A DNA stretch of 45,422 nucleotides from Pseudomonadota bacterium (GCA_043821645.1 JBDRCO010000123.1:1-45422); one strand, 5' to 3'; counted from the stretch's first letter, positions 27,803 through 45,422 are shown. A program made the numbers and translations. Notes: a model not told the origin generated them from the letters alone.

Positions 27803-28702
27803 ATGCGCGCCCGTCTCGCACAGTGGCTGGGACTGGATCCCACGGGTGTGTCCTCCCTGCTGATCAGCCAGCCGGCAGCTCTTGCCCTGGGGTTCGTGGC
27901 CTCGATCTGGCTCCTGCTGCGCGCTGGAAAATCGATGGGCCTGCGCCAGCGCGAGGTCGCTGAGCTGTTGATCGCGGCCTATCTCGGAGCCCTTGTTGCC
28001 GGCAGATTCCTCGACATGCTGACCTGGGGCGCGGACTTCTGGAGCCAGCCCTGGCGCATCGCGGACCCCTGGTTCGGCGGCGCGTCGACCCTGGGCGGAC
28101 TGCTGGGAGCGACCGCGGGTGTGGTGTGGCTCGGCCGGCGTCGGGGCCTCGACATCGTGCGATTTCTCGATGCGGCTGCACCGGTGGGAGGGGTGACGGT
28201 CGCACTGTTCAAGAGTGGCTGCTTTCTGGCCGGATGCTGCTATGGACAGCGCAGCGATGGACTTCTGGGGCTGCGCTTTCCGGCGAGCTCGCTGGTCTAC
28301 TACCACCAGGTGGGTCTGGGGCTCATCGACAGCCACTACCATGACAGCTTGCCGGTCTTGCCCGTGCAGTTGTTCGAAGCCGGCTGGGGCCTGCTGGTCG
28401 CCCTGGGGCTCTGGGGGACGCGGCCGTGGTTGAGACAATACGCGGGGGGGAGCTTCACGCTCGGCGCCATGCTCCTGCTCGGCGGCCGTACCGGGATCGA
28501 AGCCCTGCGCGGCGGTCAGGTGGCCACGATGCTGGGGCTGACCGCCGGGCAGATCACGTGCATCTTCTTCATGCTGGTCCTGGTGCTGGTTTGGTGGGGT
28601 CCCTGGCGAGAGCAGGTCCTGACCTGGTTGCGCCCGGGCCCCGCGCCATCGCCACTCTCCCTCCCGGCAGGCGACCCGCCCACGCCAGAGCAGCCTGGCT
28701 GA
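27803..28702 (+). CDS. Divergent prolipoprotein diacylglyceryl transferase (Lgt) family protein
   Basis: GG....GG, LD..AP, GCFLAGCCYG, LRFP, PVQLFE and R..IE.LRG in Lgt order, with several conserved residues substituted. Confidence 0.85.
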   Translation: MRARLAQWLGLDPTGVSSLLISQPAALALGFVASIWLLLRAGKSMGLRQREVAELLIAAYLGALVAGRFLDMLTWGADFWSQPWRIADPWFGGASTLGGLLGATAGVVWLGRRRGLDIVRFLDAAAPVGGVTVALFKSGCFLAGCCYGQRSDGLLGLRFPASSLVYYHQVGLGLIDSHYHDSLPVLPVQLFEAGWGLLVALGLWGTRPWLRQYAGGSFTLGAMLLLGGRTGIEALRGGQVATMLGLTAGQITCIFFMLVLVLVWWGPWREQVLTWLRPGPAPSPLSLPAGDPPTPEQPG

Positions 28703-28726
28703 TCCCACCGCGATCGCCGTGGCGCA

Positions 28727-28755
28727 TTGAAAGCCCTGGTCCTGTCTGCTACACA
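28727..28755 (+). promoter_or_regulatory. Putative sigma70 promoter of alaS
   Basis: TTGAAA-N17-TACACA with a TG extension, 45 bp before the ATG. Confidence 0.55.
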
Positions 28756-28800
28756 GCGCGCGAACCCGGCGCGGTGAGCCGGATAAAAGCGAGAGCCGCC

Positions 28801-31428
<2,628 letters not shown>

Positions 31429-31515: not shown

Positions 31516-34500
31516 GTGGTGGCGGCCATCAGCGGTCGAGATCCAGTTTTACTCGAGGTGACGCTCAAATACGCGTCGGTGGAAGAGTTTGAGTCCAGCT
31601 TCGCACCCAACCTGTCGTCGCACGCTGTGTTCCTCAAGACGCGGTCCCCCAAGTCCGTTGGCACGCCAGTGCGGGTGCAGCTGCATCTCCGCTCGGGCGT
31701 GGTGGTGCTCTCCGGCGAGGGCCGCGTGCTCTGGTCCTACCCTGGAGATGCCGTTCCCATCGGGCGCAGTGCCGGCATGGGCATCGCATTCACGCCTGAC
31801 GACGCCGATAGCAGGGTTCGCATGCAGCGCATCGTGGCGAACCACGGAGAGGGCGTGTCCGCGTCGCCACCGGGGTCGCGTCTGCATGCCCTCCTGGGTG
31901 TCGCCACAGCCCTTGCTCCCTCACCTGGCGCGACGGGAGCACCTGGCAGGTCCGAGTCACCTCCCGCAAAGCCGCAGCTCCCGCCCGCGCTAGGCGACCT
32001 GGGTGACGAACTCGGGGACGCCTTCGCAGCCATCACCACCGACGATGCCATTCCGGTGGTGCCGTCACCTCCCCCGAGGCCAGTCCCCACATGGGCGGCG
32101 CCCGACGAACCCGAATGGCTCGACGCCGGGGACATCGAACTCATTGGCGCGGTGCCCGCGACCGCCAGCGATGGCATGCCTCACGGCGAGCTGTCGGCGG
32201 CGCAGGTGGAGCCCGAGACTCCGGATCCCGATGGCGCTGGGCCCAGGGACGGTTCCGTGCAGGCCGCAGCTGAAACCACCCCGTCGCCGGTCAGCGCACA
32301 GTCTGCCCAGAAAGCCGACGAGGCCATCTCAGGTCCTGGCGTGCTCGACGCGCAGGACACAGCTCTCTCCTCCAGCGACGAGACCCGGGATCTGGCCCCG
32401 GCGGAAGAGGCAGCACAGACACCTGAAGGCCCCTGGGCAGGTCCCGCCGCGACCCTGGAGAATGCGGTCGCGATCCCCACCGGGGAGCGCTCGGAGTCCG
32501 TGGTCGAGGACGACAGCCCATCGACACCAGAGCCCGAGGAAAGCAGCGCACCCGACGACGGCAACGACCAGGAGTTCGTCGCTGCGCCGGCCGCCGACCT
32601 GCCCGAGCTTGCCACGGAGATCTCGACCGTCCTCGAGCCCGTTGAGGGCATGCCCGTCCCGAAAGCACCCGTGGTCGAGGTCACAGCGGAGCACGCCCCC
32701 GAAGAAGTGGTGCCCACCCCCACGAGCAAGGAGAGCGCTCCGGAGCAGGCAAGACTCGCGGATCCACCGGTCGATCCGGCGCCTGCCCACGGCGAGGCCG
32801 GCACCCCAGCGCCTCCACCACTGCGCCCTTTGGACCGCCTCGCTGCAGGGCTGACACCGGACATCGCAGGCCAGCGCGTCGGCGATCTGGATCCCGATCG
32901 GCTACATGGACGCCTTGTCAAGGCAACGGGGGGTCCCGCCGCCGGCCCACCTGACATCAAGGGCTGGTACTGGATCGTGGGCGGGCCCTTTGACAAGCCC
33001 TGGCCGCCCCAGCCCCTAGAATGGCCCGTCGACGGAACCCGGCGCCCGGTCTCCAAGATCCCACCCCTGCTCGAGGACGATCTGTGGACCAAGCTCACCG
33101 AAGGCAACGCGGCGTCGGACTGGACGGCGAACGACCTGGAGAGCAGCCCGGCCGCGCTCGCCGATGGCGGCACCGATCTACCGCTGCCGCTCAAATCCAT
33201 CGCCGCAGCCCAGCGCATGGTGGCCGACGACGCCAGGAAAACCCTGCCCACTGTGGACCCAGGACACCTGCCAAGCGCTGGCGCCACGGATGGTGAAGTG
33301 TTCGCCACCACGGAGGACCGGACATCCGGGCTGGAACAGCTGGAGCAGTCCCCCAGGGAGCTGGACGCACCGGTCGTCGTGCCTGCGGACGATGGGGAAT
33401 TCCTGTCCTGGGGAGACGAGGTGTTCAGCTTCAGCGAGCGAGCCCCGGCTGCCAGCGGTGCGGACGAGGGACGGCTCGCCTACCAGGCGCCGCGCGTCGT
33501 CTCTCGCTCGACGCACGAGCTCGAGACGCAGGACGACGACAGCTCCGGGAGCTTGTCAGACCAAGAGACCCGTGGCCTCGAGGATGGGCCGCTGTCCGAG
33601 GCTCCGGAGAGTATCGAGAACACCGTGCCAGGCGCTCCCTCGCCGCTCCTTCTGGATGACAAGGCCAGCGCTGTTCCTGCCGCCAGCGAGGACCCTGCCC
33701 CCCCCTGGGATGAGAGCGGCGCGGACGCCGAGGACTCCGAGGGACGCATCGAGGACACCACTCCTGGTGTGGTCTCTCCCTTCGCGGAGCAGGGTCCCAG
33801 TCTTCAGGCAGTCCACGTGGACGCCGGTGACGCAGGCCCCGAAGGGACGCCTTTCGCGTCGTTACTCGACACGCCACAGGCTCCAGACTCTGCTGCCCAG
33901 GAGAGTGCGGATGCGCAGTCCGGACAGCCTGCGCCCGAGGACAGCGCGGCTCCACCCGAACAGGAGGTCATCCCGCGGGGAGAGATGGACGAACCCTCCA
34001 CCACCCTGCCCATGGCCGCCGTGCAGGCTGACAGCATCGCGCTGTCCTTGCCCGTGGGTATCGCCTTGCCGGGTGGCCGCATGCGCATCCTCCTCGAGAG
34101 TGGCACCCGTGCGCCGTACGTGTTCGAACGCAACCTGCAAGTCCCTCGGGGCCAGAACCAGCTCGAACTCGATTTCCACCAGGGCGACGCACCCCAGGTG
34201 CAGGACAATGCTGGACTCGGTGCCGTCATGGCGCAGGGTGACCCCGAGACCTTTGGGGGCCGGCTCGCCTTCGATCTGCGCATCGTGGTCGAGCCCGATG
34301 GTGTACTCGACGTCACTGTTCGCGATCCCACCGGTGCCGAGGTGGCCAGTGGCCTGCTGGCAACCCTCGATGCCACAGCCATGGGTCGCTCGCGCGCACA
34401 GCGCCGCCCGCTTCCAGTGACTGCGGCTGTGGCCATCCCCGAGGTGCCACAGACCGGCGTCCTGTCCAAGCTCAAGCGGCTCTTTGGTGGACGATCGTGA
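31516..34500 (+). CDS. TIGR02266-domain protein with a long acidic linker and an Hsp70 substrate-binding-like C-domain
   Basis: N-terminal 'LKYASVEEF...NLS...VFLKT...GMGIAF'; C-terminal 'LPVGIALPGG...NQLELDFHQGD...DNAGLG...DGVLDVTVRD'. Confidence 0.8.
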   Translation: MVAAISGRDPVLLEVTLKYASVEEFESSFAPNLSSHAVFLKTRSPKSVGTPVRVQLHLRSGVVVLSGEGRVLWSYPGDAVPIGRSAGMGIAFTPDDADSRVRMQRIVANHGEGVSASPPGSRLHALLGVATALAPSPGATGAPGRSESPPAKPQLPPALGDLGDELGDAFAAITTDDAIPVVPSPPPRPVPTWAAPDEPEWLDAGDIELIGAVPATASDGMPHGELSAAQVEPETPDPDGAGPRDGSVQAAAETTPSPVSAQSAQKADEAISGPGVLDAQDTALSSSDETRDLAPAEEAAQTPEGPWAGPAATLENAVAIPTGERSESVVEDDSPSTPEPEESSAPDDGNDQEFVAAPAADLPELATEISTVLEPVEGMPVPKAPVVEVTAEHAPEEVVPTPTSKESAPEQARLADPPVDPAPAHGEAGTPAPPPLRPLDRLAAGLTPDIAGQRVGDLDPDRLHGRLVKATGGPAAGPPDIKGWYWIVGGPFDKPWPPQPLEWPVDGTRRPVSKIPPLLEDDLWTKLTEGNAASDWTANDLESSPAALADGGTDLPLPLKSIAAAQRMVADDARKTLPTVDPGHLPSAGATDGEVFATTEDRTSGLEQLEQSPRELDAPVVVPADDGEFLSWGDEVFSFSERAPAASGADEGRLAYQAPRVVSRSTHELETQDDDSSGSLSDQETRGLEDGPLSEAPESIENTVPGAPSPLLLDDKASAVPAASEDPAPPWDESGADAEDSEGRIEDTTPGVVSPFAEQGPSLQAVHVDAGDAGPEGTPFASLLDTPQAPDSAAQESADAQSGQPAPEDSAAPPEQEVIPRGEMDEPSTTLPMAAVQADSIALSLPVGIALPGGRMRILLESGTRAPYVFERNLQVPRGQNQLELDFHQGDAPQVQDNAGLGAVMAQGDPETFGGRLAFDLRIVVEPDGVLDVTVRDPTGAEVASGLLATLDATAMGRSRAQRRPLPVTAAVAIPEVPQTGVLSKLKRLFGGRS

Positions 34501-35391: not shown

Positions 35392-37074
35392 ATGACCACC
35401 GCGCTCCTTCTGGCCAGCCTTCTTGCACTGCCCGGTCCCGAGTTCCTTCAGGGCGTCACCGTGGACGGCTGGACACAACAAGCCCTGCCGGGCGTGGTGT
35501 TGCGAGACCAAGAAGGGCGCGCCATCGCGACCAGCGATGCCCGGGGACGTTTCTCGGGCCAGATGCTGCGGGGCATGCCGGGCTTGTGGGCAGAAGAACC
35601 GCACGCGCGGTACGAGCGAACGGCGATCCTGTTGCCCAGAGATGCGGCCGGAAACCTGCTCATGACTCCTCTGCGCATCGCCCTGATCCCTTTCGTGCCG
35701 GAGGGCCCGCCTGCGCCGGGAGCCACGGGCGTCCCCGCCGAGCGCCACGGGGATGCAGACCTCGCTGGACCCGAGCCCCTGACCTCCCCCCTGTGGTCCT
35801 ACACCTTGCCGGCACAGATGCCGTCGACGATTCGCGTGCTGCGCTGCCCCGGCACCACCTGCTGCGATGCTCCAGGGGATGGCGTCCAGACCATGAGCTT
35901 CGAGGACTACGTCAAGGGTGTCGTCAACGCAGAGGTTGGCATCTTCCGCAGCATGTCCACCCTCGACGGTCAGGCTCTCGGCGAGGCCGCGCGGCAGACG
36001 GGTTCCGCCGCCGTGTTCCAGACGCTGGCTGTCGGCTCTCGAAGCTATGCCCTCAACTGGTACCTGCGCCGGCAGAGCAACAACCCGGGCTATGACATCC
36101 GCGACGGCACCTGCGAGCAGGTCTATGGCGACGAACGTCACGCGTGGATCAACAGCGCCGTCGATGCCACGGCTGGAGAGATCCTGGCCGTCTCCGGGGG
36201 CGTGTCCATCGACAGCTTCGAGTATGCCTCGAGCTGCAAGCGGCTCGGCAGCTTGCCCTATGGAGTGTCGGCGAGCAGTCCAAGCTGTGGCGACGTGGTG
36301 CCGGACCTCACCGGCGTGGTGGCCTGCGTGGGGAGCTGGTGTGGCCATGACACGCCAGACATGGGCCACCAGACCCATCCCTGCGATGCCTCGCGCTGCC
36401 GCTGCCTGGTCCGCGGGATCTGCCAGTGGGGGGCGGCCGAACGCTCGTTTGCGGGACAGGACTACCTGACCATCCTGACCCACTATCAACCCAACCTCGT
36501 GTGCTTGCACCTGGGCAGTGGCCAGTGCGGTGGAGGCAGCACCGTCACCACGGGGAAGCTCGTGGGCTACGTGCGTGAAGGGGACATCTACAACACCGCG
36601 ACACCCATCACCAACGCCAGCGTGGTGCTCAGCCTCGGTGCCAGTACCCAGAGCAGCAGCGACGGCTACTACGAGTTCCTGGCCCTGCAGCCCAGCCAGA
36701 CCGTCACCGTCGAGGCCAGTGCTCCGGGCTACACGACGACCATCGAGTCGAAGTTCCTGGACCCCGCCTTCACCACCTGGTGGAAGTCCCTGGCCCTGAC
36801 CCCTGTGGCCGATGCCGGGACCGCGGCGGATGCAAGGCCACGGGACACGTCCTCCGTCGACACCGCCCGTGATGCCACGGTGGAGGCCGGGGCGCTGGAC
36901 CACTGGGTGCTCCGCGATGCCGGGGAAGCTGGGCCGCTGGATTCCGCGACGAAGCCGCCAGACCCCCGTGTTGGCAGCGGCGGTTGCGACTGCACATCGT
37001 TGCTGCAAGACACCCGACCTGCCTGGTGGGCGGCCCTTGCTCTGCTGCTCGCGCTGCGTCGATCTCGGGGATGA
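35392..37074 (+). CDS. SpoIID/LytB-domain protein with carboxypeptidase-regulatory-like domains and a MYXO-CTERM tail
   Basis: FEDYVKGVVNAE, LAVGSRSY, CEQVY, AVDATAG, GICQWGA and ILTHY; tail GGCDC...WWAALALLLALRRSRG. Confidence 0.85.
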   Translation: MTTALLLASLLALPGPEFLQGVTVDGWTQQALPGVVLRDQEGRAIATSDARGRFSGQMLRGMPGLWAEEPHARYERTAILLPRDAAGNLLMTPLRIALIPFVPEGPPAPGATGVPAERHGDADLAGPEPLTSPLWSYTLPAQMPSTIRVLRCPGTTCCDAPGDGVQTMSFEDYVKGVVNAEVGIFRSMSTLDGQALGEAARQTGSAAVFQTLAVGSRSYALNWYLRRQSNNPGYDIRDGTCEQVYGDERHAWINSAVDATAGEILAVSGGVSIDSFEYASSCKRLGSLPYGVSASSPSCGDVVPDLTGVVACVGSWCGHDTPDMGHQTHPCDASRCRCLVRGICQWGAAERSFAGQDYLTILTHYQPNLVCLHLGSGQCGGGSTVTTGKLVGYVREGDIYNTATPITNASVVLSLGASTQSSSDGYYEFLALQPSQTVTVEASAPGYTTTIESKFLDPAFTTWWKSLALTPVADAGTAADARPRDTSSVDTARDATVEAGALDHWVLRDAGEAGPLDSATKPPDPRVGSGGCDCTSLLQDTRPAWWAALALLLALRRSRG

Positions 37075-37168
37075 GATCTGGACATTCGCCGTATCTTATT
37101 GTAATCTCTCATCTTATTAAAATGTGTGGAAAGGTATCCAAAGGTACCCGATAACGCTCGCAAGCTCA

Positions 37169-37184
37169 TGGCACAAGAAAGGCC
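37169..37184 (+). promoter_or_regulatory. Putative sigma54 (-24/-12) promoter
   Basis: TGGCACAAGAAAGGCC has a canonical TGGCAC and GG-N10-GC, downstream of an AT-rich tract (37091-37142). Confidence 0.6.
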
Positions 37185-37290
37185 AAAGCAGCGCACTCAA
37201 AGATATTGTTGACGAGCCGCCAGGCGGCTGTGACACAAAGCTCAAGCAGGAACGGCTGCTGCCACCCGAGAGGGATCCCAGGAGGACACG

Positions 37291-38382
37291 ATGTCAGATA
37301 TCGGCAGGATGATGTTCGGCTCCACCGGCATGAACGTGAACCGCATGCTCGATGCTCTCGGGCTCCCCGATGGGGTCGGGGACTTCATTGGCGCCGCCAT
37401 CGACAACTCGCGCGGCGATTTCATGGGCATGTATCGCAACATGGTCGACCTGACGTCGGGCATGAAGACCCGCGACCTGGATGCCTTCGAGGGCAAGGGG
37501 CTTCCGCCATCGCAGTTCGTGCCACGACCTTTCGATGGCATCGGGCGCTTCCGCAACATGTGGGGCGCCGGCTACTCCCAGCTCTCGCCGTCCCGCGAAC
37601 GAATTGGCTTCGGCAGGGCTGGCCGCAGCATGGAAGCGCGGCTGATGGGAGATTCCAATTTCCGTACTCGGATGGAAGAGCGTCTGGGCGGCGTCATCGT
37701 CCCGGACGGTCGCATGGATGGCAAGGTCACCGTGCTCCGCTACACGCCACAGTTCGGCGGCCAGGCTCTCACCCGCGCGCTCAGCAGGACCAATCCGCTC
37801 ATGGGTAGCGTCTTCCGCGCGCTGGCCATGACCGAGCTCAATACCAGCCGCTTGATGAACAACATGATGAACCCTGGCTTCAACGTCATGGGCGCGCCCA
37901 ACGAGATGGTGCTCAGGGATCCCGAGACCGCGCAGCTCGCCAACGGCATGGGCATGAGCCCGCCGCTGAGCTTCGAGGACCTGCTGTTCCTCATGATGAT
38001 GAAGTACGCGCGCAAGAAGGAGCGCGAGATCCTCAACAAGATGAACGAGCTCTCGGGCAAGGGCGGTCAGCAGGGCGGCGGCTTCGGTCGCTTCCTCGGA
38101 TCGGCCTGCCGCATCGGTGGCACCGTCATCGGCGGCCTGTACGGTGGCTTCCCGCTGGGCACCGCAATCGGTGGCCAGGTCGGCAACGCCGTCGGTGGCA
38201 TCTTCGACGGTCAACAAGGTGGCGAGGGTGCCTTTGGCAATGCCAACAAGGAATCTGACACCCTCAAGCAGATGCAGATGCAGAAGCTGATGGAAGACCT
38301 GAAGAAGATGTACGAGATGCTGTCCAATGTCATGAAGTCCATGCATGACATGCAGATGGCGGCCGTGCGCAACCTGCGCTAG
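37291..38382 (+). CDS. Met/Gly-rich protein with a glycine zipper and a T3SS needle/tip-like C-terminal helix
   Basis: AGGAGG RBS; no signal peptide; hydrophobic GxxxG segment; ends MQKLMEDLKKMYEMLSNVMKSMHDMQMAAVRNLR. Confidence 0.8.
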   Translation: MSDIGRMMFGSTGMNVNRMLDALGLPDGVGDFIGAAIDNSRGDFMGMYRNMVDLTSGMKTRDLDAFEGKGLPPSQFVPRPFDGIGRFRNMWGAGYSQLSPSRERIGFGRAGRSMEARLMGDSNFRTRMEERLGGVIVPDGRMDGKVTVLRYTPQFGGQALTRALSRTNPLMGSVFRALAMTELNTSRLMNNMMNPGFNVMGAPNEMVLRDPETAQLANGMGMSPPLSFEDLLFLMMMKYARKKEREILNKMNELSGKGGQQGGGFGRFLGSACRIGGTVIGGLYGGFPLGTAIGGQVGNAVGGIFDGQQGGEGAFGNANKESDTLKQMQMQKLMEDLKKMYEMLSNVMKSMHDMQMAAVRNLR

Positions 38383-38537
38383 CCCTCGACAGCTCTTCCA
38401 GTCCCTCCCCTTTTTACGTCGTCACCACCCGCTCCAATGCACCAGGGCACACCTCGTGCCCTGCAGCGCCATCGCTGCCCGGGCCCGTGTCGATTGTCAG
38501 GGTGCGCGGTCTACGCCGGCGAGGGCGCCTGGAACGG

Positions 38538-40313
38538 TCAGCGCAACTCGTGCAGGCTGTGGGCAACCCGGGCCGTCTGGTTGGGCTCGATCTTCACGGT
38601 CACTCGCATCTCACGCTTGAGCTCGGGATTGAACAGGCGCAGGGTCCGACGACCGGCGGGCAGCTCGAACTCCGTCGGGGTGATGCCCATCTTGCGCTGT
38701 CCAACCCAGACCTCGGCCCAGCCATCGGACAGGTAAACCAGGACCTTGCCCTTGCCCCGGGGAGCTCTGGGGGCGACTGTGGGCGAAGGAACCACCCCCT
38801 GGCCAGCATCGGAGACCGCCGCGTCGGCCTCCCGCACCTCCACGCCCGCGTCCAGGACCGGTGGTGTTGCAGAAGCATCCCGGCGTTGCCCAGGGATGAG
38901 GTTACTGCCGGGGTCGACGGCTCCCGATCCCGTCGGCGGATCGACGGGCTGCTCGAACCCCGACCCGGCGCTGCCCGCACTCGCCACCGGGCCCTCGGCT
39001 GTCTGGCTCGCTCTCGGCACAAGCCCGTACACCAGCGCCGTCGCCACGATCACCAGCGAGGCAGAGAGCGCGACCACCCAGCGGCGTTGCAGGCCCACCG
39101 TCGCCTCGTGCTGGGCGCGGGCCAGAGATCGAGCGGCCGCGGTCTCGATGGACGGGCTGGCCACAGGCGTCAGTGCGCGCTCGAACAGCGCTTCGTCCTG
39201 TGGCACCACGGTCGAGGTCATGGTCGTCAGGGGAACGTCCGCTGGCGCATCGATCCTCGACGAGGTGATCTGGCCTGCTGCGACCGGGGACTCGGCCCAG
39301 ACGCTGTCGTGCTCCGCATCGGGTGCGTCCTCGAAGGGTGGAAGATCCGCAACGGCCGGCAGGACCTCGGTACGAGGTCTGTCTCCGCGTCCGTCGCCAA
39401 ACAGCCGCAGTACCACGGGGCCCGGATCCAGGTCCTCGGGTCCCGGCTGTCTCTCGAAGATCCAGCGGCGCAGCGCAGCCTCCATCTCGGCCATGCTGCA
39501 GTAGCGCTGATCCCTGTCGACCCGCGTCGACCGCACCACGATCTCGGCGAGGCTGGCCGGAACCTCCGGTACCAGTTCACGCACATCGGGCACCGCACCC
39601 CGCAACGCGCTCCGCAGGATCGTCGCTTGCGATTCCCCCTCGTAGGCTCGGCGTCCGCTGAGCATCTCGAACAGCACGAGACCGGTGGCAAACTGATCGC
39701 TGCGATGGTCCAGTTCCGCCTCGCCGGCCGCCTGCTCCGGCGACATGTATGCCAGCTTGCCCTTGACGGTCCCGGTGGCGGTATGAACCATCCGGCTCGT
39801 CGCCTTGGCGATGCCGAAATCGCTGATCTTGACCTCGCCGGCAAAGGACAGCAGCACGTTGTGTGGCGACACGTCGCGGTGCACGATGTTCATGGGCATG
39901 CCGCGTTCGTGCCGCGTGTGTGCATGCCCCAGCCCACGGCACATCTCGGCAGCAATGAGCGCAGCACGCGCCGGACCAAGCGTCGCCCCCTGCCCCCGCA
40001 GGGCGTGCAGCACAGACCTCAGGTCCTTGCCCTCGACCAGCTCCATGGCAATGTAGTAGCGGTCGTCGACGACGTTGAAGTCCAGGATCTGCACGATGTT
40101 CGCGTGCCGGAGCCGTGCCGCCACGCGGGCCTCATCGATGAACATCGCCACGAAGTCCTGGTCTTCCGAGCAGTGCGGGAGGATGCGCTTGATGCATACC
40201 TCCATCTCGAAGCCACCCGGCCCCGTCGTCCGCGCCCTGAAGATCTCGGCCATGCCGCCAAGCCCGATGCGCTCGCACAGCGTGTAGCGACCAAATGCGT
40301 GCTCGCTGGTCAT
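38538..40313 (-). CDS. Membrane Ser/Thr protein kinase with a C-terminal PEGA-like domain
   Basis: IGLGGMAEI, IKR, HRDVSPHN, DFG, YMSPEQ and DHRSD; one TM; GITP...LPAGRRTL. Confidence 0.95.
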   Translation of the reverse strand: MTSEHAFGRYTLCERIGLGGMAEIFRARTTGPGGFEMEVCIKRILPHCSEDQDFVAMFIDEARVAARLRHANIVQILDFNVVDDRYYIAMELVEGKDLRSVLHALRGQGATLGPARAALIAAEMCRGLGHAHTRHERGMPMNIVHRDVSPHNVLLSFAGEVKISDFGIAKATSRMVHTATGTVKGKLAYMSPEQAAGEAELDHRSDQFATGLVLFEMLSGRRAYEGESQATILRSALRGAVPDVRELVPEVPASLAEIVVRSTRVDRDQRYCSMAEMEAALRRWIFERQPGPEDLDPGPVVLRLFGDGRGDRPRTEVLPAVADLPPFEDAPDAEHDSVWAESPVAAGQITSSRIDAPADVPLTTMTSTVVPQDEALFERALTPVASPSIETAAARSLARAQHEATVGLQRRWVVALSASLVIVATALVYGLVPRASQTAEGPVASAGSAGSGFEQPVDPPTGSGAVDPGSNLIPGQRRDASATPPVLDAGVEVREADAAVSDAGQGVVPSPTVAPRAPRGKGKVLVYLSDGWAEVWVGQRKMGITPTEFELPAGRRTLRLFNPELKREMRVTVKIEPNQTARVAHSLHELR

Positions 40314-41644: not shown

Positions 41645-42079
41645 TCAGCTGAGCTTGTCATCTAGCGTCGCGGAGCGGATGGCAAAATCAAGGGCCCTGT
41701 TGAAGGTCGAGATGTCGTGGTGCACGTTGATCTTGTTCTTGAGCACGATGTTGGCCACCTCGACACCGAATTCCACGTCTCGGGCCAGGACCAGAAGATG
41801 TGCGGACAGGAATCGATGGCGATGCACGAAGAGAAATCGCGTCAATTCGAGACGGCCGGCGGCGGTGTACCCGGAAACGTCCTTCCAATCGTGCAGAGCG
41901 TGGATCTTCCCGTGAGCCTCGAGGGCTTTCTCGGCCCACGCGATCATGGATTGCGCGATGCTCAGGCCCAGGTGGCCCTTGACCTCGAAAAGCAGGACCA
42001 GGCCCCGGTATCTGTGCATGTGAAGCACAGTGTTCTCGAGCTCGAGCCTCTCCTCGACATGAGCCTCTTCGACCGGCAT
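41645..42079 (-). CDS. Hypothetical protein (SpoIIAA/STAS-like)
   Basis: ATG follows GGGGAG; 'VKGHL...ALHDW..VSGY...R..L' pattern seen in myxobacterial STAS-like proteins. Confidence 0.6.
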   Translation of the reverse strand: MPVEEAHVEERLELENTVLHMHRYRGLVLLFEVKGHLGLSIAQSMIAWAEKALEAHGKIHALHDWKDVSGYTAAGRLELTRFLFVHRHRFLSAHLLVLARDVEFGVEVANIVLKNKINVHHDISTFNRALDFAIRSATLDDKLS

Positions 42080-42242
42080 CGCTCCCCCAAGTTCCGCCAC
42101 CGTCGACGACGGCGCGATTTGCTCTGCTCTCCTTTGTTCCCCCGGATCTCTTGACGGGTCGTGCGGCCACTCGATGCCACCCTCTTGCACGCGCACCGCG
42201 GACCACCGGGCAGCTCACGCCCCGCTCCCTGCCCAGCCAGCT

Positions 42243-42713
42243 TCAGCCCCCATCCATATCATCCTGCCATCCCGGGTCGACCTCCCCCACGGAATTGATC
42301 GAGTAGTCGTGCCTCGCGCGTTCCATCTCGAGTGACTGAAACTCGGCGCTGCGCGTACTCGGGCGACCCCGCTCGAAGCACCAGTCTACGCTGTTCTCGT
42401 ATCGATGAAAGACATCGTCCTTCATGGTCACGAAGTACTTCCAGCCATCGAATGGCGTCCGGAGGTGTATCTCCTCCCCGTCCCATCTGCACTCCAGCCT
42501 GTAGAAACCGTCCACACTTCGCCACATCCAGTCCGCTTCATGCTCCAGCCTGGTCGTGATGTGCTCGCCGTCGTACAGGAACGCCGCAGGGATGGCGAAC
42601 TCGTCCCCAAGCTCCCTGCCAAGTTTCTGTGCGCTGCGGACAGAACTCCTCGAGACCATCCAGATCCCGATGAGCGGCTTGAGTGAACGATCATTCACCT
42701 TTCCCGACTCCAT
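42243..42713 (-). CDS. Hypothetical protein (cassette-like)
   Basis: 156 aa, Trp/Phe-rich, lower GC3 than core genes; co-oriented with intI. Confidence 0.65.
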   Translation of the reverse strand: MESGKVNDRSLKPLIGIWMVSRSSVRSAQKLGRELGDEFAIPAAFLYDGEHITTRLEHEADWMWRSVDGFYRLECRWDGEEIHLRTPFDGWKYFVTMKDDVFHRYENSVDWCFERGRPSTRSAEFQSLEMERARHDYSINSVGEVDPGWQDDMDGG

Positions 42714-42925
42714 TTCCCCAATGACGCGACGACCATCTCACCTCACCAGCCCGGGACATTCGAAGAGAGACTCAACGGGTCCGGGTCTTCTCATCGATCC
42801 GGGTCAGTCTCCCAAGAGTACAAGATGATGGCAAGAAAACGAAATGACGAACTCTTCCTCTCACGCAGACCTGCCCGGAGATCCCTTCTTCCTGCTTTGC
42901 CTGCATATATTTCGGGTTCATTTTC

Positions 42926-43087
42926 CTATTCCGTAAGCACTCGATTCAATCTCCAGGCGGCGTATACTCCTACAAGACTCGCGAGACCACTTATCCAATA
43001 TGCTGACATGAAACCCAACATGCTCCCGAGCTCCCAGCCTGCCCAACCAAAAATTGAAATCACAACCAATCCCAGGAATTTTGCCAT
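42926..43087 (-). CDS. Small two-TM membrane protein (53 aa; absent from the ORF track)
   Basis: Hand translation MAKFLGLVVISIFGWAGWELGSMLGFMSAYWISGLASLVGVYAAWRLNRVLTE; GAGG RBS; low GC. Confidence 0.75.
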   Translation of the reverse strand: MAKFLGLVVISIFGWAGWELGSMLGFMSAYWISGLASLVGVYAAWRLNRVLTE

Positions 43088-43173
43088 TTCTTATCCTCTG
43101 GTGCATGCGCGCAGGAATAGTAGCAGCCTTCGCCCATGCTCCAAAGTGCCAGAAAAAAGGGAACCTTCGTGGA

Positions 43174-43246
43174 ACCTAACGCCGGCTTGTAGCGAACTGC
43201 GACACGATACGTTGGCTACTCGGTCAACCCGGTATCACATTCGTAC
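43174..43246 (-). mobile_element. Possible degenerate attC site
   Basis: Minus-strand core site GTTAGGT (GTTRRRY) at 43180-43174, preceded by an imperfect hairpin (arms 43182-43206 and 43210-43232). The inverse core is poor. Confidence 0.35.
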
Positions 43247-44223
43247 GAGCGGTCCACACATGGCGCGTTCCCATGCGCTCAATTTCTTGGAACTCGTTAC
43301 GGATCAGCAGTTCTGCTTCAGTTCCTTGTTATCATTATTCCCAACGCCTTGCCTCAAAACTCTGTGCGCAGGTTGAAAAGGGGTTTCTGCGGGTAGCGCA
43401 ATAGGAATAGTTTGTGCGGGGCTCGTCTCTCGCTGTGGGCTTGAATGTGCGCGTGGATCTGTGTTCTGGGTGTGAGAAGTGCTCACTTTGATCCGATGTG
43501 CCGCCCTTCGTTCGCCACCTGGGTAGGCTCCGCCCCATTCGGTCACATGCCCGAACCTGGGAGCTGTTGCCGGTGCTCCCGCAGCCTGCACTTCAGGCCT
43601 CCCCTTGACGTTCCGCTCGAGGTGGTGCCAGGAGCCCAGGCTGGGTCCTTGTTGGTTTTCCGAGTTTCCCCTCCCGACAGTGATCGGCAACCGAGAAAAA
43701 ACACACGCATTATACAGAGTTCTGTGGACTCGAGGAAGCAGGGCGCTGTCGTCATAAAGGAAGGGAGCGGTGTCGATGTGCATCCTGATTCCGGCCTGGT
43801 GGTGTGGCGGAGGGGACGCGGGTCGCGACGAGGCGGACGTGCCCTGGGGGCACTGCCTCAAATCCTGGGCATCACACATGCTCGCTCGAGCGCATGAAGC
43901 CTGTTGACCTGGTGCGCCTTGACCGTGTGGGCCTGTGCTGAGTTGAGCCAGATCGCGCCGTGTTCGACAAGAACGTGGTGGAGAGGAGCGCCTGCGGAAG
44001 TCACCGGAACCAGCAAGAGGTCCTCTGCAGGAGGCCATTGTTGTCGGGAACGCCGGAGGCCACATCGATGACGACTTCGGTAGTGGTATTGCGGATCTGT
44101 CGCTCGGTGTCGTGAAGGCAGCGCACTGCGAGCACAGAGCGCCCGAACAGGTGGAGTGCCCGTCCGCTGCCTGGCTTTCCAGGGAGTGGGATACCGCCCA
44201 CGGCGAAGCCTTTATGTGGCACG

Positions 44224-45255
44224 TCAGGACTCCGTGCTGCGATAGGGTGCCAATTCCCGTGACCCTCCCAGGATCCTGTCCGCCGGACTGATGACTCCCC
44301 GACCTCCACGATTGAGCACGTGTGTGTAGATCATCGTCGTGGATACATCGTCGTGACCGAGCAGTTCCTGAACCGTCCGGATGTCATATCCGTCCTCGAG
44401 CAGATGGGTCGCGAAGGAGTGTCGGAGCGTATGGCAGGTCGCGTTCTTGTGAATGTCCGCGTCACTGACGGCCCGCTTCACTGCACGCTGGAGCACGGCC
44501 GGGCTCATGTGGTGCCGGCGCGTCTCGTCACTGCGGGGATCCTCGGACAGGCGCGGCGACGGGAAGACCCAGAACCAGGACCACGAAAAGGGCGCCTCGG
44601 TGTACTTGCGATCGAGGGCTGTGGGCAGCCACACGCCGGGCCCACACCGCTCGCGGTCCTGTTCATGAAGAGAGCGAACCTGTGCAAGGTGCTCGTTCAG
44701 CAGCGGAAGCAACACGCCGGGCAGGACCGTGACTCTGTCTTTTTGACCCTTGCCGTCGCGGACCAGGATCTCGCGGCGCTCGAGGTCCAGGTCCTTGATG
44801 CGCAGCCGGAGGCACTCGCGGAGACGCAGACCGGAGCCGTACAGGATGCGGGCTGCCAGTCCCATGGCGCCGTCGATGCGCTGGAGCAGGCTGTGTACCT
44901 CACGTCGCGTGAGCACCACGGGCAGGCGCTGCGGAGTCTTCGCGCGGATCACGTCGTCGACACGGTCCAGAGGCTGACTCAGAACGTATCGGTAGAGATA
45001 GATGAGAGCGGACAGGGCCTGGTTCTGAGTGGCAGCGGCAACATGCAGGTCCACCGCAAGGTGGGTAAGGAAGATGTTGATCTCCAGCTCGCCCAGTTCG
45101 CGGAGGTCTCGCTTCTTGTGAAAGAGGATGAAGCGCTGGATCCAGCCCAGGTAGGCCTGTTCGGTGCGGTAACTGTAGTGGTGCGAGCGCAGCCTGTGCT
45201 GCAACTCGACCAACAGTCGCTCCTGATCGCTCGACGACAGGACATGACCTTGCAT
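44224..45255 (-). CDS. intI: Integron integrase
   Basis: [32 protein letters not shown], the integron-specific insertion (VWLP.AL.RKY...W.WFWVFPS...RRHH) and [12 protein letters not shown]...[19 protein letters not shown] 45255 follows GGGAG. Confidence 0.96.
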
Positions 45256-45422
45256 GTGGGTCTCCCTTCGAACACCGTGGTCGGCAGCAGTGCACTGCAG
45301 GAGACGGGCCAGCTCGGAATGACTCGATGAAACCGGGCGCAGTGGAGGCATGAGGAGCAGGCTGCTGTGGCGATTTGCGGCGGTCTGGCGCATTCTGCCG
45401 CGTGGTTGTGAGTGCGAACGAG

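Follow-up and report, generated by a model that had tools for sequence, protein, structure and literature searches.

A glycine-zipper protein with a needle-like C-terminal helix and its family of candidate type III secretion substrates in Myxococcota

The gene, its protein and its family

The window (the whole stretch of DNA that was analysed, 45,422 nucleotides of a Pseudomonadota bacterium, GCA_043821645.1 JBDRCO010000123.1:1-45422) carries at positions 37291 to 38382 a gene for a protein of 363 amino acids (aa). The genome to which the window belongs comprises 7.07 Mb in 140 contigs and is 94.7% complete. The protein ends in a helix that resembles the C-terminal helix of SctF, the needle protein of type III secretion systems (T3SS). 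With a probability put at about 0.6 for the mechanism as a whole, the open reading frame (ORF) is one of five paralogues of a Myxococcota-specific substrate family of a non-flagellar, secretin-less T3SS, the system called T3SS* in Myxococcus. The features of the gene, all on the plus strand, are as follows.

37280..37285 (+), Shine-Dalgarno-like hexamer (consensus), 5 nt before the ATG, read from the upstream sequence
37291..38382 (+), ORF of 363 aa with an ATG start, stop included; dispersed paralogue of the T3SS-linked family, from the ORF listing and homologues
37330..37374 (+), conserved N-terminal motif, aa 14-28, with invariant G24 and near-invariant L23, from conservation among relatives
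37375..37968 (+), variable head, aa 29-226, with a small alpha/beta core at about aa 95-155, from paralogue identity and the predicted local distance difference test score (pLDDT)
37969..38052 (+), conserved helix, aa 227-254, with invariant E229, from the alignment and an AlphaFold2 (AF2) helix at aa 228-256
38056..38250 (+), Gly-rich segment, aa 256-320, from the sequence, with GxxxG starts at 258-307
38113..38205 (+), glycine zipper, aa 275-305, within the Gly-rich segment
38263..38379 (+), C-terminal amphipathic helix, aa 325-363, SctF-needle-like, from PF09392, hhalign and a needle hidden Markov model (HMM)

The GC content by codon position (0.59/0.43/0.85) fits a real gene in a genome of 67% GC, and the coding strand is confirmed by relatives with 33-71% identity. 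Neither a sigma-70-like promoter nor an intrinsic terminator was found in 36800-38800. The initial annotation described a Met- and Gly-rich orphan protein without a signal peptide and quoted three stretches of it. All three stretches are present in the 363-aa ORF, Gly and Met make up 15.4% and 9.9% of the protein (vs 9.3% and 1.7% in a crude ORF set from the same genome), and the N-terminus, read by eye, has no hydrophobic core. The motif at aa 14-28 is a candidate export or chaperone-binding region. The C-terminal amphipathic helix has a hydrophobic moment of 1.08 per residue.

The word orphan does not hold. At E<=1e-3 the protein matches 57 proteins that, where named, are hypothetical proteins of Deltaproteobacteria or of metagenome-assembled genomes (MAGs) of Myxococcota, and among 1.84 billion cluster representatives there are 237 matches at the same threshold and 74 at E<=1e-10. 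Full-length paralogues were found on five contigs of the genome (C123, C134, C94, C82, and C69), the window copy being one of the five. The C-terminal helix is the most conserved part; its identity among the five paralogues is 87-93%, followed by 70-83% for the conserved helix and 28-35% for the Gly-rich stretch. The heads are 33-56% identical overall (46-56% in aa 1-100, falling to 33-44% in aa 101-205). Three longer proteins of the genome carry parts of the family protein: two of them, of 633 aa and 650 aa, have the same C-terminal module at their ends. The third, of 1152 aa (G000:C43:84883-88341, minus strand), has a LysM domain, four annexin repeats and the conserved helix of the family, without the terminal module. 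Two glycine-zipper families, C19orf12 and Gly-zipper_Omp, are matched by 8/64 and 2/64 relatives, respectively, and the 633-aa relative is over the cut-off for a glycine-zipper family.

A profile of the family matches 250 of the 401 Myxococcota genomes sampled at E<=1e-5 per genome, and many of the matches in the largest family are weak (~1e-6). FHIPEP, the family of the T3SS and flagellar export gate protein SctV/FlhA, is present in 349 of the 401 (a tally that includes the unpublished genome G195, on which no other claim depends), so that co-occurrence with a T3SS is uninformative.

The structure of the protein was predicted with AF2 from an alignment that included 64 relatives (mean pLDDT 67.6). 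The model has a helical region with a small sheet up to aa 256, helices at aa 12-22 and 27-40 around the N-terminal motif, and a terminal helix at aa 323-360, which is packed with the conserved helix as a hairpin at low confidence. The core of the head is modelled best (pLDDT ~80-90 at aa 101-150), and the N-domain modelled alone is worse (pLDDT 59.7). A Foldseek search with the full model gave no match at E<=0.001, and VIA-wide searches gave generic helical hairpins for the full model (Z<=6.0, aa ~225-363) and generic helical repeats for the N-domain model (Z<=6.1), and nothing else. The head is left unassigned by these fold searches, which do not by themselves make it a new fold. A single-sequence search of solved structures returned only keratin (E 1.3). 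In the ESM Atlas, the feature search gave no usable match, and the top row of the structural search was a Myxococcota cluster in which 12% of the members have NolX (TM 0.32), which we take as a lead only.

The C-terminal helix and type III secretion needles

The initial annotation proposed that the end of the protein is a helix like those of T3SS axial proteins. The curated models give no more than hints of this. The needle family PF09392 matches the window protein at E 0.15, where aa 320-359 correspond to model positions 29-68 of 71, and the SseD translocon model matches it at E 0.059. PF09392 is touched by 19/64 relatives, more often than any other family, with a best E of 0.019; a flagellar rod C-terminal model is touched by 8 of the relatives and SctB2 by 2, and all of these hits are below their cut-offs. 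In the whole genome no protein is over the PF09392 cut-off, and four of the six weak hits are family members.

A more sensitive comparison was made with hhalign between the last 142 residues of the family and an alignment of 15 needles taken from annotated T3SS loci. The match has a probability of 85.1% and a score of 36.1 over 31 columns with 39% identity, and it is anchored at the C-termini of both sides. The reversed needle scored 16.3, 100 column-shuffled needle alignments scored 11.4±2.3 (maximum 19.7) and 100 shuffled family alignments scored 10.5±2.4 (maximum 23.4); no shuffled null reached a probability of 50%. At the level of sequence profiles, the C-terminal helix of the family resembles the C-terminal helix of the SctF needle beyond composition-matched nulls, which bears out this part of the proposal. 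When an HMM of the needles was run over the 5,523 ORFs of the genome, all five paralogues were found in the top seven.

The likeness was also examined with single references (17 proteins: three needles, 13 other T3SS references and the SctI candidate of the genome). The three needles were the only ones to align in the C-terminal register, with probabilities of 3.7% for YscF, 1.5% for MxiH and 42.9% for the Nitratidesulfovibrio needle. Rods, tips, translocators and chaperones gave no alignment: YscI 0.1% and MxiI 0.3% for the rods, LcrV 0.2% and Providencia SctA 0.3% for the tips, and <=2.5% for the six reference translocators (YopD, YopB, Nitratidesulfovibrio SctB and SctE, and Providencia SctE and SipC-like protein). 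For a likeness to tips, the fold searches returned nothing beyond generic helical matches. The likeness to SctI rods that the initial annotation had added to that of SctF is not borne out by these values. The conserved helix at aa 227-254 was considered as the N-terminal helix of a needle hairpin with an expanded turn and was rejected (hhalign 1.6%). EspA, Bsp22 and the harpins are T3SS substrates that are larger than SctF and have a needle-like or coiled C-terminus, the harpins being Gly-rich as well; these are taken as a lead only.

The first rank of the needle HMM went to the SctI candidate (G000:C43:101196-101816, minus strand, L042), a 206-aa ORF whose translation probably begins internally and gives 171 aa. 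PF17001 is matched by the last 65-80 residues (E 0.036, model positions 16-94 of 94), the gene adjoins a sigma-70-family gene, and orthologues lie beside SctJ in genomes G117 and G172.

Type III secretion genes, chaperones and short relatives

A search of the genome for sct genes and for paralogues with the same C-terminal motif, as the initial annotation had suggested, found both. The initial annotation noted that the window has no T3SS genes; this stands for the window genes scanned and not for the genome, where a non-flagellar T3SS is encoded by genes for SctJ, D, N, O, a P-like protein, Q, R, S and T on contig C87, SctU on C134 and SctV on C70. No canonical needle was found in this system. 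The genome has two FHIPEP genes, of which one belongs to a flagellar cluster (MotAB, FliOPQ, FlhBA, FlhF, FlhG, and FliA). The flagellar cluster lies at G000:C86:42920-55459 (L011) and includes a FliA-like sigma factor; further along that contig are NikA/MobC and relaxase genes. At G000:C70:59446-66970 (L013), the non-flagellar sctV is found on its own, with two unknown genes of 448 and 413 aa on the opposite strand to one side and a gene for an 825-aa leucine-rich-repeat protein to the other.

On C134 a paralogue of 421 aa is found in the order sctU, orf158, TPR152, 421-aa paralogue, orf412, TPR222, orf377. The best match of both tetratricopeptide repeat (TPR) proteins is LcrH_SycD (E 1.4e-22 and 3.3e-26), with full-length coverage, and neither reaches the strict equivalog cut-off. 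A profile built from orthologues of TPR152 aligns with LcrH, SycD and SicA at 94-96% (LcrH 95.6%) and with YscG, YscY, SycE and SycN at 0.1-2.3% (YscG 0.4%). The C134 cassette is syntenic in another MAG (L021). Two further genes of the cassette are kept there and in several metagenome loci: orf412 (G000:C134:9985-11223, L015) encodes a Cys-rich protein of 412 aa with no family match, and orf377 (G000:C134:12901-14034, L015) has a weak match to DMATS-type prenyltransferases (E 1.4e-6).

The arrangement extends to another taxonomic family of Myxococcota, f6, in which a member lies, by coordinates, 1-1.7 kb upstream of an FHIPEP gene in nine genomes. All six f6 loci that were fetched have the order member, TPR222, sctV, and upstream of it sctU is present in 4/6, TPR152 in 3/6 and orf158 in 3/6. 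Among metagenome loci, T3SS-linked genes stand beside the member in 10/32, some of the ten being copies of one another. Family members are thus linked by gene position both to the T3SS and to chaperones of the translocator class, and the association of the family with a T3SS is, in our judgement, very probable. The initial annotation had suggested that the protein could mark an apparatus other than the T3SS-like system of myxobacteria; this receives no support, the core member being encoded within the operon of that very system. A complex of the SycD-like TPR152 with the first 100 residues of the window protein was predicted at 0.16 against a mark of 0.32, a value that counts neither way.

Shorter relatives were found in Myxococcaceae-like genomes. 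All five complete genomes that were examined encode the C-terminal module in a protein 1.4-21.5 kb upstream of an FHIPEP gene on the same strand, and each of the five has at least one such protein within 8 kb. In G117 and G172, a protein of 189 or 209 aa, consisting of the zipper and the needle-like helix, is encoded upstream of an SctI candidate and SctJ, and the short-variant clusters have a protein of ~150 aa with the same two parts; zipper and helix proteins of 150-210 aa occur at both types of locus. Tandem genes for 72-aa proteins lie between LcrH-like genes, three in G145 and five in G172. The 72-aa proteins align with needles at 66% over 59 columns and with the C-terminus of the family at 97.7% (P 2e-12), one of them covers PF09392 positions 7-69 of 71 (E 0.14), and their database relatives are hypothetical proteins of Corallococcus, one of which has a precomputed PF09392 hit. 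The genome of the window has no 72-aa mini-needle gene: a mini-needle HMM matches 6 of 88,891 six-frame segments, and all six carry the C-terminal module of the family (the five full-length members and the 650-aa protein of C139).

The 72-aa arrays (L080, G145:C1:8927822-8928870, and L081, G172:C1:3683764-3685786) are a few kb from sctV and each has the full needle layout. Between chaperone genes of the T3SS cluster of G172 there is also a gene (L081:5847-7040) for a 397-aa protein with DUF1521 (E 9.1e-13), a domain known in rhizobia from a self-cleaving T3SS effector.

The window gene itself is a dispersed copy. Its neighbours are given as context and are not counted as part of the secretion system.

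35392..37074 (+), SpoIID-like protein of 560 aa with a carboxypeptidase-regulatory-like domain, upstream neighbour, from Pfam and synteny in L019, L088 and L090
38538..40415 (-), Ser/Thr protein kinase with a PEGA domain, convergent downstream neighbour, which also adjoins the orthologues

These flanks, SpoIID-like upstream and Ser/Thr kinase downstream, are kept in 3/3 of the closest relatives that have flanks. In a tree of 28 members, the window copy and those three relatives form a clade with a support of 100/100; the T3SS-embedded copies are on short branches, the dispersed copies branch from them with longer branches, and the deeper order is unresolved. No conserved neighbours common to the paralogues of the genome were found. 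The SpoIID-like protein begins, as read by eye, with a signal-like stretch, and its C-terminus is Cys-rich and hydrophobic and presumably resembles the MYXO-CTERM sorting signal.

An alanyl-tRNA synthetase gene (1000 aa) is present in the window at 28426-31428, and a homologue of it follows sctV directly in four f6 loci and in L113, where a PilZ-family gene like that at 31516-34500 of the window comes next. The synthetase gene was considered as a part of the system and rejected, as it appears to be a remnant of a chromosomal neighbourhood that the loci shared. At 42-44 kb of the window the GC content drops to 0.575-0.586, and a phage-type integrase gene lies at 44224-45393 (-); the region 42001-45393 may be the edge of a mobile element.

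Mechanism, alternatives and meaning

The initial annotation read the protein as a secreted axial or translocator-like protein that joins a docking helix to a hydrophobic segment, and given the helix likeness and the ties to T3SS and chaperone genes this is a fair reading of a presumably secreted protein. The signals are mixed, needle-like in the helix and translocator-like in the chaperones and the hydrophobic segment, and the family protein is best described as a putative needle/translocon hybrid. Export, polymerisation and pore formation by the family are proposed as follows. A class II chaperone would hold the protein and mask its hydrophobic zipper, and the protein would then be exported through the T3SS gate. 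The needle-like helix would dock or stack the protein on the rod or gate or, in systems that have them, on short SctF-like subunits, and the glycine zipper would enter a membrane to form a conduit or pore. In the window copy the constant docking module is retained and the head is divergent, and this copy is probably an alternative head for the same machine.

With the SctF needles (MxiH, YscF, and that of Nitratidesulfovibrio) the family shares, at profile level, a C-terminal helix that in needles lines the lumen and that is anchored at the C-terminus, and its core gene stands in a T3SS operon. SctF is encoded in the T3SS locus, as are the C134 paralogue and the members in 6/6 f6 loci; the window gene is not. 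Unlike the needles, of ~85 aa, the window protein has 363 aa, a length outside the ~70-90 aa of the PF09392 hairpin, with a head and a glycine zipper, no alignable N-helix or turn, and a score below the Pfam cut-off, and the chaperones that neighbour the family are of the translocator class. With the SctB/SctE translocators it shares the order sctU, class II chaperone, client, as in the SPI-1-type locus of Providencia, an apparently hydrophobic segment followed by a C-terminal amphipathic helix, and weak SseD and SctB2 hits. In contrast, none of the translocator references aligns, and in place of a classical transmembrane helix the family has a glycine zipper. SctB and SctE target the eukaryotic host membrane, whereas the targets here would be bacteria. 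A class II chaperone is adjacent to the T3SS-embedded paralogues and not to the window gene.

The Myxococcales T3SS has been described since 2012, in the accessible part of the source, as being without SctF, tip and translocon, and has been presented as a model of a pre-needle ancestor of the injectisome (PMC3459982). In the accessible text of reviews from 2023 to 2025, the system has several LcrH chaperones, no needle or translocon homologue is reported and the substrates are given as unknown (PMC10433427, PMC10849154, PMC12075869). The system found here has the same components as the T3SS* of Myxococcus, namely SctD, J, I, Q, RSTUV and N, several LcrH homologues and no secretin; these papers, as far as their available text goes, see no homologue of needle or translocon, whereas here a candidate family lies between the chaperone genes (PMC10433427, PMC12075869, PMC3459982). 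The minor-pilin 'Tips' of the Kil Tad pilus, as covered in the accessible text of one of these sources, likewise have an assembly module that is constant and exposed heads that vary, and a genome has several versions of them (PMC12075869); protein family and machine are unrelated, and the analogy would be one of function only. The family was not found described in literature on the Myxococcus T3SS, on SctF with Myxococcota or on T3SS glycine-zipper translocators, a search that did not extend to the primary 2022 T3SS* paper and its supplements, where a gene table could list some of the ORFs.

Several results weigh against the proposed reading. The curated models are all below their cut-offs for the window protein (12.7 bits vs 29.4 for PF09392, 13.5 vs 130 for SseD), and equally weak PF09392 hits occur in 6/14 control genomes, so that these scores alone prove nothing. 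The alignment to needles covers only ~31 columns and does not recover the N-terminal helix of the needle, and the full-length family profile finds no needle and no T3SS chain among solved structures at E<=10. Among the window genes scanned, none near the gene is a T3SS or chaperone gene, and 22/32 metagenome loci have no T3SS-linked genes beside the member. The T3SS has no dedicated secretin, so that no route across the outer membrane is evident; of the two secretins in the genome, one is part of a GspD/E/F-type system and the other is the product of a PilQ-like gene. As a transmembrane helix the zipper would not be a classical one: in the C134 paralogue no window of 19 residues exceeds 1.5 on the Kyte-Doolittle scale, and AF2 models aa 258-317, which include it, as disordered (pLDDT <50). 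The class II chaperones point to a translocator, but the translocator references do not align, and the role is therefore mixed.

Three other explanations were weighed. In the first, which we consider unlikely, the protein is itself the major filament subunit, which polymerises in many copies through terminal helices in the manner of flagellin or EspA, carries head and zipper on the outside and replaces the missing SctF. Such a subunit would account for a genome with neither a canonical needle nor a mini-needle gene, for the flagellar rod model touched by 8/64 relatives and for a C-terminal helix that is the most conserved part. Against it, the flanking chaperones are of the translocator class and not of the needle class (YscG 0.4% vs LcrH 95.6%); the N-terminal needle helix is not detected, G145 and G172 have separate SctF-sized genes beside the module proteins, and a homopolymer sits badly with five divergent heads in a single genome.

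The second explanation, in our view improbable, is that of a glycine-zipper membrane protein outside the T3SS, whose helix is needle-like by convergence and whose position in the operon reflects a plug- or gatekeeper-like regulatory or assembly role inside the cell. The sub-threshold database hits, the weak needle hits in T3SS-free controls, the lack of a secretin and the matches to glycine-zipper families (8/64 and 2/64 relatives, with the 633-aa relative exceeding the cut-off) all agree with this explanation. Convergence is harder to reconcile with a score far above composition-preserving nulls and with a match anchored at the terminus in three independent needles, and the 72-aa proteins provide a link that extends over the entire hairpin of the needle. 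An intracellular role is at odds with translocator-class chaperones on both sides, which argue for an exported hydrophobic client.

Least probable is an effector or toxin role for the window copy, which would be exported with the C-terminal module as a mere export or docking tag, shared with the structural paralogue, and would act against prey through its head: heads that diverge beside a kept module, the longer branches of the dispersed copies, fusion of the module to unrelated long proteins (633, 650 and other lengths) and a locus that is stable in 3/3 close relatives with flanks beside a SpoIID-like surface protein would suit it, but Pfam, NCBIfam, Foldseek and VIA find no enzymatic or toxin domain in the head, no immunity-like small gene is evident alongside, and T3SS export signals are normally N-terminal.

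The reading as a T3SS substrate family with a docking helix and exchangeable heads is therefore preferred. A wider version of it is tentative, and we would sooner doubt than assert it: the 'needleless' T3SS* would not be needleless but would export an SctF-derived set made up of 72-aa mini-needles in some genera, zipper and helix proteins of 150-210 aa and, in lineages such as that of the window, proteins of 360-440 aa with swappable heads; chaperoned by LcrH homologues and assembled above the export gate, these would breach a bacterial envelope by way of a glycine-zipper pore, and the window protein would be one alternative head that tunes the target.

The family provides named candidates for the missing clients of the LcrH chaperones and for the outer part that the machine seems to lack, a question that thereby becomes open to direct tests in tractable myxobacteria. 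It is also relevant to the evolution of the system, in which SctF may have been lost or may only have diverged.

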